Origin: Alphaproteobacteria bacterium
GTDB taxonomy: Bacteria > Pseudomonadota > Alphaproteobacteria > Bin95
Assembly: GCA_964291285.2 (NCBI GenBank)
Contig: OZ219787.1
Coordinates: 608,001 to 672,000 of the forward strand
Direction of reading: 5' to 3'
DNA length: 64,000 nt
Numbering within the stretch: the stretch's first letter is position 1; every line of letters begins with the position of its first letter. The notes beneath the pieces were generated by a model. That model worked only from the letters and a program-made list of their open reading frames with translations. It did no database searches and was not told where the DNA came from. Of this stretch, positions 52,002 to 58,136 are shown in pieces. Both the position numbers and the translations under genes were made by a program.

Positions 52002-54305
52002 ATGGACCGGATGATGGCGCCCTCGGCCCTTGAGCGCTATATCGGCTTCGTTCTTCGACGCCGATGGACGGTCCTGCTGTTCGCCGGCCTGGTTATGCTG
52101 GCGGTGACGGCAGGCGCTCCCTTCATCGGCGTGACCAACGATTACCGCAGCCTTTTCGATGAGGACAATCCGCAGCTCGCCGCGCTGGACGCGCTGGAGG
52201 AGACCTACTCCGCATCCGACATTGCGCTCGTCGCCATTGCCCCGCGGCAGGGTTCGGTCTTCACCCGCGAGACCCTCGCCGCGGTTGAAGAGCTGACCGA
52301 AGCGGCCTGGCAGGCGCCGTTCTCAACCCGGGTCGATTCCCTGACCAACTATACCCACAGCGAGGCGTCCGAGGACGACCTGGTCGTCGGCCCGCTTGTC
52401 AGGAACGCGGGCGCGCTCGCCGACGAAGGGCTTGTACGGGTCGAAGAGATCGCGCTGAACGCAATCGACCTTGCCGGCCGACTGGTCTCCCATGACGGGC
52501 GCGTGGCGGGGCTGACGATAAACTTCTCCTTGTCCGACGACCGGGATGCTTCGGTCGCCGAGATCAACAATTTCCTCCGCGCCCTTCTGGAGCAGGCCCG
52601 CGCCGGCCATCCGGACCTCGACTACCACCTGACCGGCGACGTCGTCATGCACCAGGTCTTCGCCGACACGACCCAGGACGACGTGCGCACCCTCACGCCT
52701 CTGGTGTTCACGATAATTGCGGTTGCGATCGGGCTCCTGCTTCGTTCCTTGTCGGGCGCCCTCGCCCTCATCATCGCGCTGATATTCACCGTCAACACGA
52801 CGATGGGCTTCGCCGGCTGGGTCGGAACGGTACTCAACCCCGCCAACTCCGGCATCCCGATCATCGTGATGACCGTCGCCGTGGCGCATTCAATCCATAT
52901 CGTTGCAAGCGTTCTGGAGCGATTGGGACGTGGCCTCGGCAGGAGTGACGCCGTTGCCGAGGCGCTCCGCGACAATATCTGGCCCGTTTTCCTTACCACC
53001 GCGACCACTGCAATCGGATTCCTCAGCCTGAATGCGTCCGATTCGCCGCCCTTCCACGTGCTGGGCAACATGGTCGCTTTCGGAGTGCTGTGCGCCTTCC
53101 TCTACTCGGTTACCGTCCTGCCGGCCCTGCTTTCAATCCTGCCGCTGCGCGCGCCTCCCGCGCCGGGCGGGCAGCCCGGTTTTTTCGAACGGTTCGGCGA
53201 TTTCGTCGTGGAGCGCCGGAGGGCGCTGCTCATTTCCGTGCCCCTCCTCGCCGCGGTGCTGGTATCCGGCATCCCGCACATCGACCTGACGGACAACTGG
53301 CCGCGATATTTCGACGAGCGCTACGAGTTCCGGCGCGACACGGATTTCGTCATCGACAATCTGACGGGCATGGAAACGCTCGAATATTCGCTCGATTCGG
53401 GGCGCGACAACGGCATCACCGACCCCGGATATCTGCAGGCCGTGGATGCCTTTGCGGAGTGGGGCCGGGCGCAGCCGGAAGTGATCCATGTCCAGGCGTT
53501 CCCGGACATCATGAAGCGCCTCAACAGGAACATGCACGGCGACGACCCGGCCTACCACCGCCTGCCCGAGGACGGGGCCCTGGCGGCCCAGTACCTCCTG
53601 CTTTACGAGCTTTCGCTTCCCTTCGGCAGCGACCTCAACGACCGCATCGACGTCGCCAAGTCCGCAACCCGGCTGAGCGTCGTCACGCGAAGCCTGACCT
53701 CGCGGCAGCAGCGCGAACTCGATACGCGGGCCCAGCAATGGCTCCGGGCAAACGCGCCCGACCTGCTGACGGAAGCATCGGGGTTCACCATCGTTTCCGC
53801 GCATCTTTCGCAGCGGAACATCAGGAGCATGCTGACCGGGACAATCATCGCCATGGCGTTGATATCCCTCATACTGATCGGGATTTTCAGGAGTATCCGC
53901 CTGGGCCTCGTCAGCCTGGTGCCCAACTTCATCCCGGCCGCCATGACCATCGGCCTCTGGGGCTATCTTGTGGGGCGGGTCGGTCTCGCCGGGTCGGTGA
54001 TGACGGCGATCGCCTTCGGGATCGTCGTGGACGATACGATTCACTTCCTGACCGCCTATCTGAGGGCCCGCCGCGAGGGGCTCGATCCCGCCGGAGCCGT
54101 TCGCAGCGCGTTTCGTACAGTCGGCCGGGCGCTGTGGACCACCACGATAGTCCTGTCGCTCGGATTCCTGGTGTTTGCCTCATCCGGGTTCGAGGTAAGC
54201 TGGGCGCTCGGCCTGATGGTGGCGATCACACTCGTCTTCGCGCTGCTTGCCGACTTCCTGCTTCTCCCGGCCCTTCTGATGGCGATCGACCGCAGGAGCC
54301 CGTGA
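52002..54305 (+). CDS. MMPL/RND superfamily transporter
   Basis: Two repeats of one TM, a large loop and five TMs; LTTATTAIGFLSL, GIVVDDTIHF, LLPALL. Confidence 0.88.
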   Translation: MDRMMAPSALERYIGFVLRRRWTVLLFAGLVMLAVTAGAPFIGVTNDYRSLFDEDNPQLAALDALEETYSASDIALVAIAPRQGSVFTRETLAAVEELTEAAWQAPFSTRVDSLTNYTHSEASEDDLVVGPLVRNAGALADEGLVRVEEIALNAIDLAGRLVSHDGRVAGLTINFSLSDDRDASVAEINNFLRALLEQARAGHPDLDYHLTGDVVMHQVFADTTQDDVRTLTPLVFTIIAVAIGLLLRSLSGALALIIALIFTVNTTMGFAGWVGTVLNPANSGIPIIVMTVAVAHSIHIVASVLERLGRGLGRSDAVAEALRDNIWPVFLTTATTAIGFLSLNASDSPPFHVLGNMVAFGVLCAFLYSVTVLPALLSILPLRAPPAPGGQPGFFERFGDFVVERRRALLISVPLLAAVLVSGIPHIDLTDNWPRYFDERYEFRRDTDFVIDNLTGMETLEYSLDSGRDNGITDPGYLQAVDAFAEWGRAQPEVIHVQAFPDIMKRLNRNMHGDDPAYHRLPEDGALAAQYLLLYELSLPFGSDLNDRIDVAKSATRLSVVTRSLTSRQQRELDTRAQQWLRANAPDLLTEASGFTIVSAHLSQRNIRSMLTGTIIAMALISLILIGIFRSIRLGLVSLVPNFIPAAMTIGLWGYLVGRVGLAGSVMTAIAFGIVVDDTIHFLTAYLRARREGLDPAGAVRSAFRTVGRALWTTTIVLSLGFLVFASSGFEVSWALGLMVAITLVFALLADFLLLPALLMAIDRRSP

Positions 54306-54560
54306 ACCGCCGGTGTGTCACGGCATGTCCTGGCCGGGTTCTTCGACGAAGCACCTGTTCATATTTTTTGAATTATTTCTACTATAGAGCTTGATTTTTT
54401 AAAAGTTTATGGTAATTTGACCCTGAGGATGAGGGCGACGTTCGCGGGGCCGCCTCGTCTTCCGCGTCGGCGTCGGCGCGAAAAAAGCGGGGATTATCCG
54501 CTTGACTAAATGACGGCGAGTCCCCATATTCTGACTCAAGCAGTCGGAACGGAGGCCGTC

Positions 54561-55529
54561 ATGGCTGGCAAGCACTACCGCGAAGGCGTGACCATCATGG
54601 AGTTGGGAGAGATGTTCCCGACCGAGGAAAGCGCCCGCGAATGGTTTGAGGCGAAGGTCTGGCCGAACGGTCGCCATTGCCCGCGCTGCGGCCATACCGA
54701 GACGATTGAATGCACCGGCAACCCGCCGATGCCCTACTACTGCCCCGGCTGCAAGCGGCATTTCAGCGTCCGCATCGGCACCGTCATGGAGCGGTCCAAG
54801 CTCTCGTTCCGCAAGTGGGTTTGGGCGATCTACCTGCACCTGACTTCGCTCAAGGGCGTCTCCAGCGTGAAGCTGGGCCGGGACATAGGCGTCCGGCAGG
54901 CAACCGCATGGTTCATGCTCCAGCGCATCCGCGAAGCCTTCAAGCGCGACGACGAGCCGCCCATGGACGGGCCGGTAGAGGTGGACGAGGTCTATCTGGG
55001 CGGGCTGCGCAAGAACATGCACAAGGCGAAGCGGGAGAGCCTTGAGGGTCGCGGCGCTGTCGGCAAGGACATTGTCGTTGGCGTGAAGGACCGGGGCACG
55101 AAGCAGGTTCGCGCCCGCCATGTCCAGCACGCGGACGCGCCGTCGCTGGCAGGCTTCGCCGCTCACAACGCCCGCATCGGCACGACGGTCTATTCGGACG
55201 AGGCGACGGTCTATCGGGCGCTGCAAGTGTGGTTTCAGCATGAAGCGGTCAATCACTCCGCTGGCGAGTATGTCCGCCAGCAGGCGCATACCAACGGGAT
55301 CGAGAGCTTCTGGGCCATGTTGAAGCGGGCGCACAAGGGCGTCTATCACAAGTTCTCGCCGAAGCACCTTCACCGCTACATCGCGGAGTTCGCCGGGCGG
55401 CACAACATCCGCGAAGCCGGGACGCTGGCACAAATGGCGGGACTGGCGGCCGGCATGGTCGGGAAGCGCCTGACCTACGCCCGGCTGATTGCCGAGAACG
55501 GGCTGGCGAGCGGGGCGCGGCCATACTAG
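54561..55529 (+). CDS. IS1595 family transposase
   Basis: GGAGG RBS, ATG 54561; Zn ribbon CPRC...CPGC, KGVSS..L, VEVDEVYLGG, VYSDE, VNHSAGEYV, HTNGIESFW, YIAEF..RHN. Confidence 0.95.
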   Translation: MAGKHYREGVTIMELGEMFPTEESAREWFEAKVWPNGRHCPRCGHTETIECTGNPPMPYYCPGCKRHFSVRIGTVMERSKLSFRKWVWAIYLHLTSLKGVSSVKLGRDIGVRQATAWFMLQRIREAFKRDDEPPMDGPVEVDEVYLGGLRKNMHKAKRESLEGRGAVGKDIVVGVKDRGTKQVRARHVQHADAPSLAGFAAHNARIGTTVYSDEATVYRALQVWFQHEAVNHSAGEYVRQQAHTNGIESFWAMLKRAHKGVYHKFSPKHLHRYIAEFAGRHNIREAGTLAQMAGLAAGMVGKRLTYARLIAENGLASGARPY

Positions 55530-56732
55530 TCACGCCTCTATCAGCCACGGGAACAGGGCGGCGCGCTTCTGCATACGCTCTTTCAGGAATTGCTCTTGCG
55601 AGCGCGTTCCCTTCGACGAATTGCAGGCGCCGCACAGCAGCCAAAGGTTCTCAAGGTGGTCGGTCCCGCCATGCGCTTGCGGGACGATATGGTCCACCGT
55701 CAGATTGCGCTTGCGGAAATGCTCCCCGCAACCGCCGCAAAAGCCTTCCTGCTGGCCGTAGAGCAAGTCCAGGTGCGTCCGGTAGTGGGGAAGGTCTCCC
55801 AGGTCCGTGCGGCCCGGCTGGTCCGTCCTGTGGACAACATCGCCGGTCTTGTAGAGCGGGATTTCGTCGAGGATGCCTTGCAGGCGCGTCGTGACGAGCT
55901 CGGCCGCCTTCGCGGAAATGTCGATGCCGATCCACTGGCGCTGTAGCCGCTCCGCCGCCACGGCGGCCGTCGCGCAACCGCAAAATGGGTCCAGCACGAC
56001 ATCGCCCTCGTTACTCGACGCCTTGATGATGCGGTCCAGAAGGGCAAGCGGCTTCTGCGTCGGATAGCCGACATATTGCGCCTTTTGGCGGGGCGCTATG
56101 GCGAGTCCATTTCCTTTCTCTTGCGGCCACCATGTTTCAGGGACTTTGCCGTCCGTCAGCCCATATTCGCCCTCGATAAATCCAGAACCGCGCAAACCGT
56201 CTTTGAAATTCGCCTTGGTCTTGCCATGGTGCTGAATACGCACGGCGTCGGCATTGAAGGTCCATGTCTCGCCGACTGAATACCAGTGGATTGTATCGTG
56301 CTTTCGGTTGAACTGGCGCATATGCGGTGAGCCGGGGCCAGTATAGCACCAGATAATCTCGTTCCGGTGATTAAGGCGTCCGAAAATCGCGTCCATGAGC
56401 ATCTTGAGATAATGCGACGCGAACGGGTCACAATGCAGATAGATGCTGCCGGTCGGCTTCAGGACACGCCGCATTTCGACGAGGCGTTGCGCCATCATGC
56501 CGAGATAGGCCGCCATGCCGCGCCCGTGCGCCAGCCGGGCCGCGTCGATTATGGCGAAAGTCGTCGGGTCACGCTCTTGCAGCAGTGCCAGATAGACGCG
56601 GTCCGCGTCGTCGAAGGTCCATGAGTCCTTGAAGGCAGCCCCGGCCGCCTCCGAGCCTATGGGTGCGCTATAGGTGCGGTTGGAGTTGAAGGGCGGGTCG
56701 AGATAGATGAGATCGACCGTGGCGCTGTTCAT
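55530..56732 (-). CDS. Beta-class N6A/N4C DNA methyltransferase fused to a C-terminal HNH endonuclease (frame open to 56819; true start uncertain)
   Basis: VDLIYLDPPF (motif IV) precedes YPTQKP and VLDPFCGCAT (motif I); C-terminal CGGC...VDHIVP..HGG...N...LCGACNSSKG Zn-HNH. Confidence 0.9.
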   Translation of the reverse strand: MNSATVDLIYLDPPFNSNRTYSAPIGSEAAGAAFKDSWTFDDADRVYLALLQERDPTTFAIIDAARLAHGRGMAAYLGMMAQRLVEMRRVLKPTGSIYLHCDPFASHYLKMLMDAIFGRLNHRNEIIWCYTGPGSPHMRQFNRKHDTIHWYSVGETWTFNADAVRIQHHGKTKANFKDGLRGSGFIEGEYGLTDGKVPETWWPQEKGNGLAIAPRQKAQYVGYPTQKPLALLDRIIKASSNEGDVVLDPFCGCATAAVAAERLQRQWIGIDISAKAAELVTTRLQGILDEIPLYKTGDVVHRTDQPGRTDLGDLPHYRTHLDLLYGQQEGFCGGCGEHFRKRNLTVDHIVPQAHGGTDHLENLWLLCGACNSSKGTRSQEQFLKERMQKRAALFPWLIEA

Positions 56733-57167
56733 GCCTCTCAGGACATGGAGATTGTCGCGCGTCCAGATGGTGCGGTTGCGCCAGTTGGCTTCCTGCGTCG
56801 CCGCTGCGTCGCCTGCCTTCTACCCTATCAGATTTCCTCGCCATGCTTGATCTCCCGCTGTGAAGAGCACAGGCTAGGAGACGGGCTGATATTTAGTCAA
56901 ACGGATAATCCCCAAAAAAGCCGTTGAGAAACGGACGGGATAAGTGCGTCCCGTGCCACGCCCGCGGGCAGGTACAGGCGCAATCAGGCGCACGATACGC
57001 GCGGATAAGGGTCCCGCCGCCCGGATGAGCCGGCGGCGGAGAGGACGGAACGAAACCGGAGCGACAGGAAGAACCCATGCCGAAGACAGAGGGCCACCGA
57101 AACCGGATGGAATACCCGTACCCCATGCCCGAACGGACGACAGGGTATGCGTCGCGTGCATGCAAAC

Positions 57168-57237
57168 CATGACATCTCATGACACATCGCAGGAGAGGCT
57201 CGGGACGCCTCATGACAAAACATGACATCTCATGACA
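57168..57237. repeat. Five CATGACA heptamers with 10-bp phasing
   Basis: Copies start at 57168, 57178, 57211, 57221, 57231; the 17-mer CATGACATCTCATGACA occurs twice. Confidence 0.85.
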
Positions 57238-57335
57238 TTCCCGTGGAGTGGGCCCCTGGGTCGCTGCAGCCCTGCCGCACTGCCTCTGCCCGACTCCGGC
57301 CATGGTTTGCCGGCTCCGGGACCCGGCCCGTCGCG

Positions 57336-58136
57336 TCAGACCGCCTCCAGCGGCGGCGGAGGCGGCGGGTCGGCAAAGAGAGCCTGCGCCCCCACGATAT
57401 CGAGGTCATGCCCCGGCGAGCGGGCTATGGTGGCATGCACCGTGCCGGCGGCGAGTGCCATGGCCTCCGCCCAGCCGTCCCGCCACCGGGCCGCAAGCAG
57501 AGCGGCGAACAGGTCGCCCGCCCCGTAACCCGGATGCGCGACCTGCGGCACCACAGCCTGCCTGGCCTCGCCTTCCGATATGCCGACACAGGCGATGCGC
57601 CCCTCCCCCGCCGGGACGCTTGTCGCCACGACGAGGGAGGGCCCGAGCCCGGCGGCAACCTCGGCGGCTCGCGCCGGCCCGTCCACCTCCCGGGCCCCGA
57701 GCAGGGAAAGCTCGAACCGGTTGGGCGTTGCCGCCGCGGCCCGCGGCAGGAGTTCCCGCCGGATGGCTTCGGGCAGGTCCGGGGCCACGAACAGCCCCTT
57801 CGGATCGTCGCCCATGACCGGGTCGAGCAGGTAGGGCGCGCCCACACGGTCAACCGCGCGCGCCACCGCTTCCGCATTGGCGGCCGAGCCCAGATAGCCG
57901 GAAAGGACGAGATCGATGTCCTCCAGGAAACCGCGTTCCTCCAGCCCGCTCACAATGCGGTCGATGCTCTCGGCCGGATGCACCTCCCCCCGGAACCCGC
58001 CATGGGCGGGATGGTTGGAATAGGCGACCGTGTCGATGCAGGTGACCTGATGACCTAAGCGCTGGAGCACGAACACCGCCGTGCGATTGCCGACGAAACC
58101 GCGCGCCACCGAGGACTGGATCGATAGAATGTGCAT
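57336..58136 (-). CDS. pdxY: Pyridoxal kinase
   Basis: ILSIQSSVARGFVGN, SNHPAH, VLSGYLG, DPVMGD, TPNRFEL, GAGDLF. Confidence 0.88.
   Translation of the reverse strand: MHILSIQSSVARGFVGNRTAVFVLQRLGHQVTCIDTVAYSNHPAHGGFRGEVHPAESIDRIVSGLEERGFLEDIDLVLSGYLGSAANAEAVARAVDRVGAPYLLDPVMGDDPKGLFVAPDLPEAIRRELLPRAAAATPNRFELSLLGAREVDGPARAAEVAAGLGPSLVVATSVPAGEGRIACVGISEGEARQAVVPQVAHPGYGAGDLFAALLAARWRDGWAEAMALAAGTVHATIARSPGHDLDIVGAQALFADPPPPPPLEAV

Follow-up and report, generated by a model that had tools for sequence, protein, structure and literature searches.

What kind of gene does an insertion sequence (IS) carry beside its transposase at positions 54489-56913 of the stretch studied here, and is that gene able to work? 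The stretch, hereafter the window, comprises 64,000 nucleotides of contig OZ219787.1 from an alphaproteobacterial genome (positions 608,001 to 672,000, forward strand). We found that 54489-56913 is a 2425-bp IS1595-family transporter IS (tIS) whose cargo gene encodes a DNA methylase joined to an HNH nuclease domain. It is a recently active mobile element, and the structural evidence for it is far beyond chance expectation. As regards the cargo, we lean towards the reading, drawn by analogy with known enzymes, that the element is a mobile, phase-variable, single-chain restriction-modification (RM)-like unit, currently OFF in all four of its copies in the genome. This reading builds on the anatomy and mobility of the element, the variation in repeat number, the frame state of the cargo gene, and the conservation and recurrence of the cargo, all of which were observed directly.

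Anatomy of the element and its insertion site

The element is bounded by terminal inverted repeats at 54489-54525 (+ strand) and 56877-56913 (- strand), for which the repeat search gave 37 nt with 81 % complementarity. The core of the left repeat, 54489-54511, reads GGGGATTATCCGCTTGACTAAAT, and the ends read GGGGATTAT in all four genome copies. The 23-bp inverted repeats reported in the preliminary description are thus present, though by eye 22 of the outer 23 nt match. The perfect 8-bp target-site duplication reported there was also recovered: AAAAAAGC was read from the sequence at 54481-54488 on the left and at 56914-56921 on the right, and it is single in an assembled empty site from sequencing run X2 (see below). 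Two convergent open reading frames (ORFs) lie inside, 54510-55529 (+) and 55530-56732 (-). As described before, their stop codons abut, and the element holds no further gene beyond those for the transposase and the methylase-HNH protein.

The plus-strand gene encodes an IS1595-family DDE transposase. The mechanical ORF call starts at 54510 and gives 339 aa, but the start is most likely ATG 54561, which gives a protein of 322 aa (54561-55529, +). This ATG has GGAGG 7 nt upstream, lies downstream of a promoter-like site, and homologues begin near there. Pfam searches recovered DDE_Tnp_IS1595 (PF12762, 1.1e-38, profile positions 2-153 of 153) and Zn_ribbon_IS1595 (PF12760, 5.4e-08), and the NCBIfam model transpos_IS1595 (NF033547) matched with 5.6e-54 and 183 bits against a cut-off of 75. 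A DDE-type transposase with an N-terminal zinc ribbon, inverted repeats and an 8-bp duplication place the element in the IS1595 family. It is a tIS, as a gene with no part in transposition lies inside the inverted repeats and travels with the transposase in 4/4 copies, and the earlier view of an IS1595 transporter with an intact transposase therefore holds. The transposase reads GIESFWAMLKR...AEFAGR. The ISNwi1 subgroup with passenger genes, which we take to be defined by ends GGnnatTAT and a DDEK+ER4 signature (K at +7, E-x3-R), would be a candidate home for the element.

The promoter-like site (TTGACT, 17 nt, CATATT; 54502-54530, +) was found as a consensus match, lies partly in the left repeat and faces the transposase gene; one such site was found against 0.9 expected in shuffled sequences, which makes it weak evidence. 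The sigma-70-type scan gave no promoter-like site for the cargo gene. A complex prediction for the transposase and the methylase-HNH protein yielded a score of 0.00 (mark 0.32), which is evidence neither way.

The element sits between an MMPL-family transporter gene and a kinase gene (Phos_pyr_kin match). It was inserted into the T-tract of a hairpin in the flanking DNA that resembles a terminator (56921-56934, -), the hairpin being a consensus match only. All seven duplicated targets of this element and of a second element family of the same genome (family B, see below) look AT-rich, in a genome of 68 % G+C.

Copies of the element and its mobility

The genome examined consists of 5 contigs with 6.1 Mb in total, and a search of these contigs recovered four full copies of the element. 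They differ solely by 2 single nucleotide polymorphisms in one copy and a 66-bp repeat expansion in two copies. Perfect 8-bp duplications flank two of the four, namely the window copy (AAAAAAGC) and the copy at C3:1312203-1314693 (TTTGGTTA). The other two, at C3:2119247-2121671 (L001) and C2:1045193-1047683 (L004), carry swapped 8-bp flanks, AATCCGAA/CATTACTG in the first and CATTACTG/AATCCGAA in the second. The swap points to recombination between copies on two contigs or to an unresolved cointegrate from replicative transposition, and an assembly join is a further possible cause.

Sequencing runs, analysed as assembled contigs, which lose minority variants, captured the element in different states. 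In run X2, from the same organism, a contig of 1173 nt joins position 54480 to 56914 and represents the empty site; the 8-mer is present once and fits the sequence on either side of the joint. The element forms a separate contig of 2425 nt in run X1, with a depth of 497.5, versus about 136 for the flanks. Comparison of runs X2 and X3 (sister samples) with 54489-56400 recovered a diverged relative of the element with the same left end, whose transposase region has 23-50 other letters per aligned piece. In X2, part of the cargo region gives way to 764 different letters. These relatives suggest cargo exchange within the species.

Beyond this organism, a DNA search of a plasmid collection with the whole element found no record covering at least 80 % of it; six records hold short methylase or transposase parts with 70-78 % identity. 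The whole element was likewise not found by DNA search in 40 related genomes, where only transposase pieces of 66-77 % identity were recovered, in 10 of the 16 same-genus genomes and in one genome of another family.

The cargo protein

The frame of the cargo gene is open over 55530-56819 (-), and the called ORF within it (55530-56732) encodes 400 aa. Residues 6-279 (55896-56717, -) match the Pfam domain N6_N4_Mtase (PF01555) with 4e-46. The methylase motifs are DPPF (motif IV) at residues 12-15, TQKP at 225-228 and DPFCGCAT at 248-255, and motif IV stands before motif I with a variable region between them, which is the order of the beta class. DPPF in motif IV points to adenine-N6 rather than cytosine-N4 as the methylated position. 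The Foldseek search with the predicted structure (mean pLDDT, a per-residue confidence measure, 67.7) had M.BceJIV, M.RsrI and M.MboIIA as its top matches (E 1e-12 to 6e-11, probability 1.00). Sequence matches in the PDB agree with beta-class N6-adenine methylases, and Mod subunit structures match too. The methylase is of the beta class and probably of the N6-adenine type.

The segment between motifs IV and I had been proposed as an exchangeable target-recognition domain, and the comparison of 30 homologues speaks for it. Residues 151-215 (56088-56282, -) are hypervariable, with a mean pairwise identity of 0.33 (minimum 0.04) and a length of 61-117 aa, versus mean identities of 0.68-0.69 in the catalytic lobes and 0.63 in the HNH domain. 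This candidate target-recognition domain thus appears to behave as an exchangeable recognition segment would.

The HNH nuclease domain follows at residues 332-377 (55602-55739, -), with the pattern CxxC...DH...N...CxxCN and Pfam matches to HNH (PF01844, 4.8e-14) and HNH_5 (3.4e-13). The beta-class methylase-HNH fusion recognised in the preliminary description is thus borne out. The domain contains the catalytic D-H...N...N/H residues and two CxxC pairs of zinc ligands. Residues C332, C335, D347, H348, N362, C367 and N371 are invariant in the 30 homologues (59-93 % identity), and C370 falls into the class with 90 % conservation or more. When 80 genomic loci were added, each of the eight HNH sites was kept in 72-76 of the 81 sequences, a set in which DPPF and DPFCG are invariant by construction, being search patterns. 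Degeneracy of the HNH residues across homologues, which had been considered beforehand as a possible outcome, is refuted by these counts. Across phyla, the catalytic residues are as well conserved as the methylase core, which argues that the nuclease chemistry is under selection. The nearest named HNH models are IscB (4.4e-11) and Cas9d. When shorter proteins were searched with the HNH region, most of the hits were C-terminal pieces of this fusion, and no new architectures turned up.

Searches of defence-system models and of mobile-element collections recognised the methylase part. Among the best 25 of 66 PADLOC matches we found only MTase_II, MTase_III and orphan-methylase models, and the transposase matched none; MTase_III (Type III Mod), with 7.8e-46, scored nearly as well as the Type II models. 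The fused form was absent from 72,556 plasmid records, where none of the 39 matching records covers 80 % of the protein, and from 50,697 phage records (none of 54); the matches in both collections are to the methylase part alone. These results, together with repeats at the 5′ end of the coding region as they are typical of phase-variable methylases (see below), fit an explanation in which the cargo is an epigenetic writer. It would be an orphan phase-variable methylase ('phasevarion') spread by transposition, with the HNH domain serving as a nickase or for DNA binding in some task besides restriction, e.g. strand marking or repair. We regard this as unlikely, as the HNH catalytic residues would hardly be kept to the same degree as the methylase core across phyla, and as the nuclease of family B is a translationally coupled second gene in the layout of an RM operon.

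A repeat tract at the 5′ end of the cargo gene

The called 400-aa ORF is N-terminally truncated. The family has a conserved N-terminus, NW.N.T.WTGDNL..MRG, which precedes the called MNS start. In the window copy these first ~22 residues (ANWRNRTIWTRDNLHVLRG) are encoded upstream in frame, without an in-frame start codon; the frame is open up to 56819 and is closed by a stop at 56820-56822. The called ORF consequently lacks the complete N-terminal strand and helix before motif IV, which would be present only in an in-frame allele.

Between the conserved segment and the likely start lies a tandem repeat tract of 11-bp units (CTGCGTCGCCG on the + strand) at 56793-56813 (-). It comprises 1.9 units in the window copy and 7.9 units in two other copies (2 vs 8), and is the only length-variable site among the four copies. 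The likely true start of the cargo gene, read from the sequence, is ATG 56844-56842 with GGGAGA 6 nt upstream (56842-56856, -). This ATG opens an ORF of 58 aa (56668-56844) that is out of frame with the methylase. It stands 112 nt from M1, and 178 nt from it in the long copies; both distances are 1 mod 3, so the 2-copy and the 8-copy alleles are both out of frame. A repeat number divisible by 3 would bring ATG 56844 into frame, and none of the three frames is interrupted by a stop within the repeat. Judging by these frames, the full-length enzyme is probably not expressed from the element as it stands. The preliminary description had missed that the start codon is out of frame in 4/4 copies.

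At 67 of 78 homologous loci an in-frame ATG precedes the position of the window M1 by 13 codons or more, and the conserved segment follows it. Six of the 78 lack any in-frame start, and four of these six carry a repeat tract there. Altogether nine tracts occur in 8 of the 80 loci within 210 bp at the 5′ end of the gene, against 0.45 expected from the rest of the loci (Poisson 1.5e-9, descriptive only). They include (GCGACCG)x20, (GCCAGCCC)x7, a 10-mer x3.6, and runs of C or G of 9-16 (C16, C14, G12). Loci L011, L040 and L076 combine a 5′ tract with an in-frame upstream ATG. L012, L044, L052 and L089 have a 5′ tract and no in-frame start; in L012 and L089 an upstream ATG is visibly in another frame. 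The tracts of L011, the closest relative (82 % identity), are C9 and C11, and its gene is in frame. A repeat unit not divisible by 3 thus lies between the start and the functional domains, its number varies among copies, and relatives are found in and out of frame. Such mixed frame states at a conserved position are the signature of a contingency locus and make an on/off switch probable.

The same lesion raises the question of whether the cargo is simply dead, i.e. a frameshifted pseudogene hitch-hiking on an active IS and without present function. None of the four copies has an in-frame start before the conserved N-terminus, many short fragments of the family occur in the protein database, 3 of the 80 homologous loci have interrupted frames, and one further element family of the genome (family D, see below) looks decayed. 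However, the 1290-nt frame past the repeat is fully open, with intact catalytic motifs, and is identical in the four copies. The sole lesion lies in a tract that changes length, and repeats stand at the same spot in 8/80 relatives, which argues for reversible switching and not for decay. We therefore consider a dead cargo rather improbable.

Several points weigh against the phase-variable RM-like unit that we favour. All four copies are out of frame, so the cargo may be dead and not switchable. A 2-copy tract slips rarely, and in assembled contigs switching within the population would not be visible. The 210-bp range was chosen after the first repeat scan, which is why the P value for tract enrichment is descriptive, and homopolymer lengths in metagenome-assembled genomes (MAGs) may be errors, so that the ON/OFF calls for such loci are uncertain. 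The structure model of the cargo is of moderate confidence, PADLOC knows the methylase part only and assigns it to no known defence system, and the absence of the fusion from the plasmid and phage collections searched is unusual for a defence or addiction gene.

If the cargo is nevertheless a switchable RM-like unit, the element might work as follows. The transposase would bind the GGGGATTAT terminal repeats, insert the element into AT-rich 8-mers and duplicate them. The recognition segment would read a short DNA motif, at which the methylase part would mark the host DNA, and the tethered, zinc-stabilised HNH domain would cut or nick DNA carrying the unmarked motif. The slippery 11-bp repeat between the start codon and the conserved N-terminus would gate translation, with full-length translation only at a repeat number that is a multiple of three; two or eight repeats would mean OFF. 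Methylation, cleavage, discrimination between self and non-self, switching in the population and a benefit in defence or addiction are what we would expect from the known behaviour of beta-class methylases, HNH restriction enzymes, single-chain RM enzymes and phase-variable Mod genes.

Distribution and neighbours of the fusion family

The architecture is not a rarity. The protein search with the cargo gave at least 8000 matches, and 117 of the best 120 carry both domains; few of these matches are named, and then only as 'DNA methyltransferase' or 'hypothetical protein'. The genome scan confirmed at least 572 genomic loci among the 600 pattern matches listed, spread over many phyla. The fusion occurs in Alpha- and Gammaproteobacteria, Chloroflexota, Acidobacteriota, Poribacteria, Latescibacterota and others, and the protein atlas contains several clusters with the methylase-HNH architecture. 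The hosts are mostly uncultured bacteria, many of them sponge-associated according to source labels, and this may be why the family has escaped characterisation.

We inspected 5 kb around each of the 80 homologous loci. An IS1595 transposase lies within this distance in 15 loci (one of them partial, at a contig end) and an IS1-type transposase in 3 further ones, which gives 18/80. Clustering of the flanking ORFs in these loci grouped the IS1595 transposase in 14, a second methylase paralogue in 5 and a short-chain-dehydrogenase-like ORF (read from the sequence) in 6. An ORF antisense to the IS1595 transposase gene recurs in 7 loci and is regarded as spurious. No helicase and no separate restriction or nuclease subunit recurs among the neighbours of the 80 loci. 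As the IS1595 transposase and the second methylase are the only recurrent functional neighbours, the fusion reads as a stand-alone unit. The second methylase paralogue adjoins the fusion gene in L011, L034, L058, L059 and L086; its representative shows no HNH motif in the part seen, and the arrangement resembles the paired methylases of some systems with asymmetric sites.

Inverted repeats of the GGG(G/A)ATTA(T/C) type enclose the transposase and the cargo in L017, L029, L045, L077 and L080, and L080 also has an 8-bp duplication, AAAGTAAT. In same-genus genomes, related transposases adjoin methylase or HNH pieces in 6 of 23 loci. We also considered whether solo methylase-HNH genes are cassettes that lack a transposase; this was rejected, as 0/59 solo loci have flanking inverted repeats (at least 17 matches).

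The transposase and cargo distances correlate modestly over 16 pairs (Mantel r 0.39, permutation p 0.014), a value inflated by the near-identical pair L013/L070, so that strict co-divergence is neither rejected nor established. The correlation would fit some long-lived pairings plus reshuffling. In the pair itself, L013 (a Poriferihabitaceae MAG) and L070 (a Halioglobus MAG) have IS1595 transposases that are 100 % identical and methylase-HNH proteins that are 94 % identical, a likeness which suggests a recent transfer of the whole unit.

Related elements in the same genome

The genome contains four separate element families that pair IS1595 or IS1 transposases with a methylase and an HNH domain, fused or split. 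Family B, of IS1595 type, has 3 copies of 2574 bp, one at C1:811248-813821 (L114) and the others on C2 and C3, with ends GGGGATTATAGGG and perfect 8-bp duplications in 3/3. Its three genes are those for a transposase, for a 314-aa methylase and for a separate HNH protein; the ATG of the last overlaps the stop codon of the methylase gene, as in a two-gene RM operon, and Pfam gave no match ahead of the HNH domain in this protein. Family C is represented once, by a transposase gene with a gene for a 446-aa fusion behind it. Family D looks decayed, as its methylase match is not spanned by any intact ORF. Family E is a tIS of the IS1 family, present in 3 copies, with an IS1-family transposase, a 430-aa methylase-HNH protein and a 22-bp repeat core, GGTAGTGTCTCACTTTGACTTT. 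One of its copies has an 8-bp duplication, ATGGGCCG, and one is without its left end; a copy (L117) lies at C3:12159-15226, with the full left end ~70 bp further left. A run of C stands right after the start codon of the family E cargo gene, which is in frame. The sequence GGGCGTCA borders copy 1 on the left and copy 2 on the right, an arrangement suggestive of an inversion between the two.

The cargo thus occurs in three gene orders with this transposase superfamily. The view of the cargo as an arbitrary passenger has to be given up, since a methylase plus HNH recurs with IS1595 or IS1 transposases in 18/80 loci and in the four families of this genome. Such recurrence would be explained if the cargo served the transposon as an accessory module, either cutting unmethylated or empty sites to stimulate copying, or methylating the ends or the promoter to time transposition; frequent carriage by IS1595/IS1 transposases would then be expected. 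The transposases near 15 and 3 of the 80 loci, the four families, the modest correlation of distances and the inverted repeats that enclose both genes in loci of other phyla all agree with this. On the other hand, no such transposase lies within 5 kb in 62/80 loci, and flanking inverted repeats were absent from all 59 solo loci examined. Most IS1595 elements are without this cargo, among them a transposase type for which tblastn gave ~16 matches in the genome. The families vary in gene order and orientation, which suggests repeated capture, and either the element transposed with its cargo OFF or each copy went OFF independently. Taken together, we find an accessory role quite unlikely.

A broader reading takes up both the restriction-like cargo and its recurrence. 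In it, the fusion would represent an undescribed class of single-chain RM enzyme, phase-variable and co-evolving with transposons of the IS1595/IS1 superfamily, whose switchable cargo enforces retention or drives spread. The transposon would give mobility, and the cargo would act e.g. by cutting unmethylated genomes or empty sites. We hold this wider claim to be doubtful.

Comparison with known systems

Classical Type IIG/IIC/IIL enzymes, of the MmeI, Eco57I and BpuSI kind, have an N-terminal PD-(D/E)XK nuclease and a gamma-class methylase, and some of them are phase-variable. The fusion resembles them in concept, as one polypeptide with one recognition module for methylation and cleavage, but it has the beta-class methylase first and the HNH domain at the C-terminus. 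It was rightly set apart from Type IIG/IIC enzymes in the preliminary description. The nuclease type and the methylase class both differ, and the fusion therefore stands outside the classical Type IIG/IIC lineage.

With Type III Mod proteins and phasevarions it shares a beta-class methylase, a central variable region and simple repeats in the 5′ coding region. In contrast to Type III systems, its nuclease is the fused HNH domain, and a Res helicase-nuclease subunit is neither encoded in the element nor recurrent in the 80 loci; for lack of Res, the fusion is not a Type III system. By analogy, it may work like Type IIG/IIC or Type III enzymes.

Among the Type IIS enzymes, MboII, MnlI and HpyAV are HNH enzymes, according to the part of a review available to us (PMC4081073). 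M.MboIIA is one of the best structural matches of the cargo, and family B shares the two-gene layout of these systems. Unlike enzymes of the MboII kind, whose separate nuclease has its own recognition domain, the window element has the HNH fused behind the methylase. The nearest functional relatives may, by this analogy, be Type IIS systems such as MboII, with a beta-class methylase and an HNH nuclease.

The element also recalls TnpB/IscB systems in that a nuclease gene stands next to a transposase gene and in that IscB and Cas9d are the best named matches of the HNH domain. Unlike them, it has no RuvC domain and no guide RNA known to Rfam; where they are guided by RNA, it has a methylase domain. 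In 53900-57600, the Rfam scan with E up to 0.1 found no RNA family and no guide RNA. We had considered a guide or regulatory RNA of a known family in the element and dropped this candidate after the empty scan.

The known IS1595-family elements tISCpe8 and MTnSag1 have 25-bp repeats, according to the section of the source consulted (PMC5704250). The window element agrees with them in its IS1595 DDE domain with zinc ribbon, short inverted repeats, 8-bp duplication and inner passenger, but they carry lincomycin resistance and mobilisation functions and it carries a methylase-HNH fusion. In the part available to us, Furuta et al. 2010 cite Siguier et al. 2009 for modification genes in IS elements (PMC2853133), and methylase passengers of IS1595 elements may already be listed in the latter. 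The HNH parts of two reviews (PMC4081073, PMC12707154) do not mention a methylase-HNH fusion. Our literature search, which had REBASE and ISfinder outside its scope, found in the portions of text covered no paper describing such a fusion or such a cargo. Measured against these sources, the large family appears uncharacterised, and its fusion of a beta-class methylase with a C-terminal HNH domain may be new relative to the known kinds.

Should the fusion both restrict and modify DNA, it would be the smallest HNH-based RM unit, a single protein of 420-450 aa with an exchangeable recognition segment. Moved by a 2.4-kb IS and gated by a slippery repeat, it would join selfish RM genes, transposon cargo and phase variation in one element. 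The family would be a source of candidate new DNA specificities, of use in methylome work and in enzyme discovery, and a tractable test of whether RM cargo helps a transposon persist.

Flanking sequences

About 60 bp at 54360-54420, directly after the MMPL transporter gene, are strikingly AT-rich for this genome of 68 % G+C, and the Rfam scan gave no match to them. In a sponge metagenome, run X4, contigs match this AT-rich left flank with few differences; runs X4-X23 contain no more than small fractions of the sampled words. The right flank differs in kind, as 56957-57260 is a member of a dispersed repeat family of roughly 300 bp. The search with the two flanks returned 156 BLAST rows, and the rows listed all fall on the right flank. 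Read depth at 57167-57287 is ~18x that of the flanks. The repeat may be a miniature inverted-repeat transposable element-like (MITE-like) or a repetitive extragenic palindromic-like (REP-like) element.

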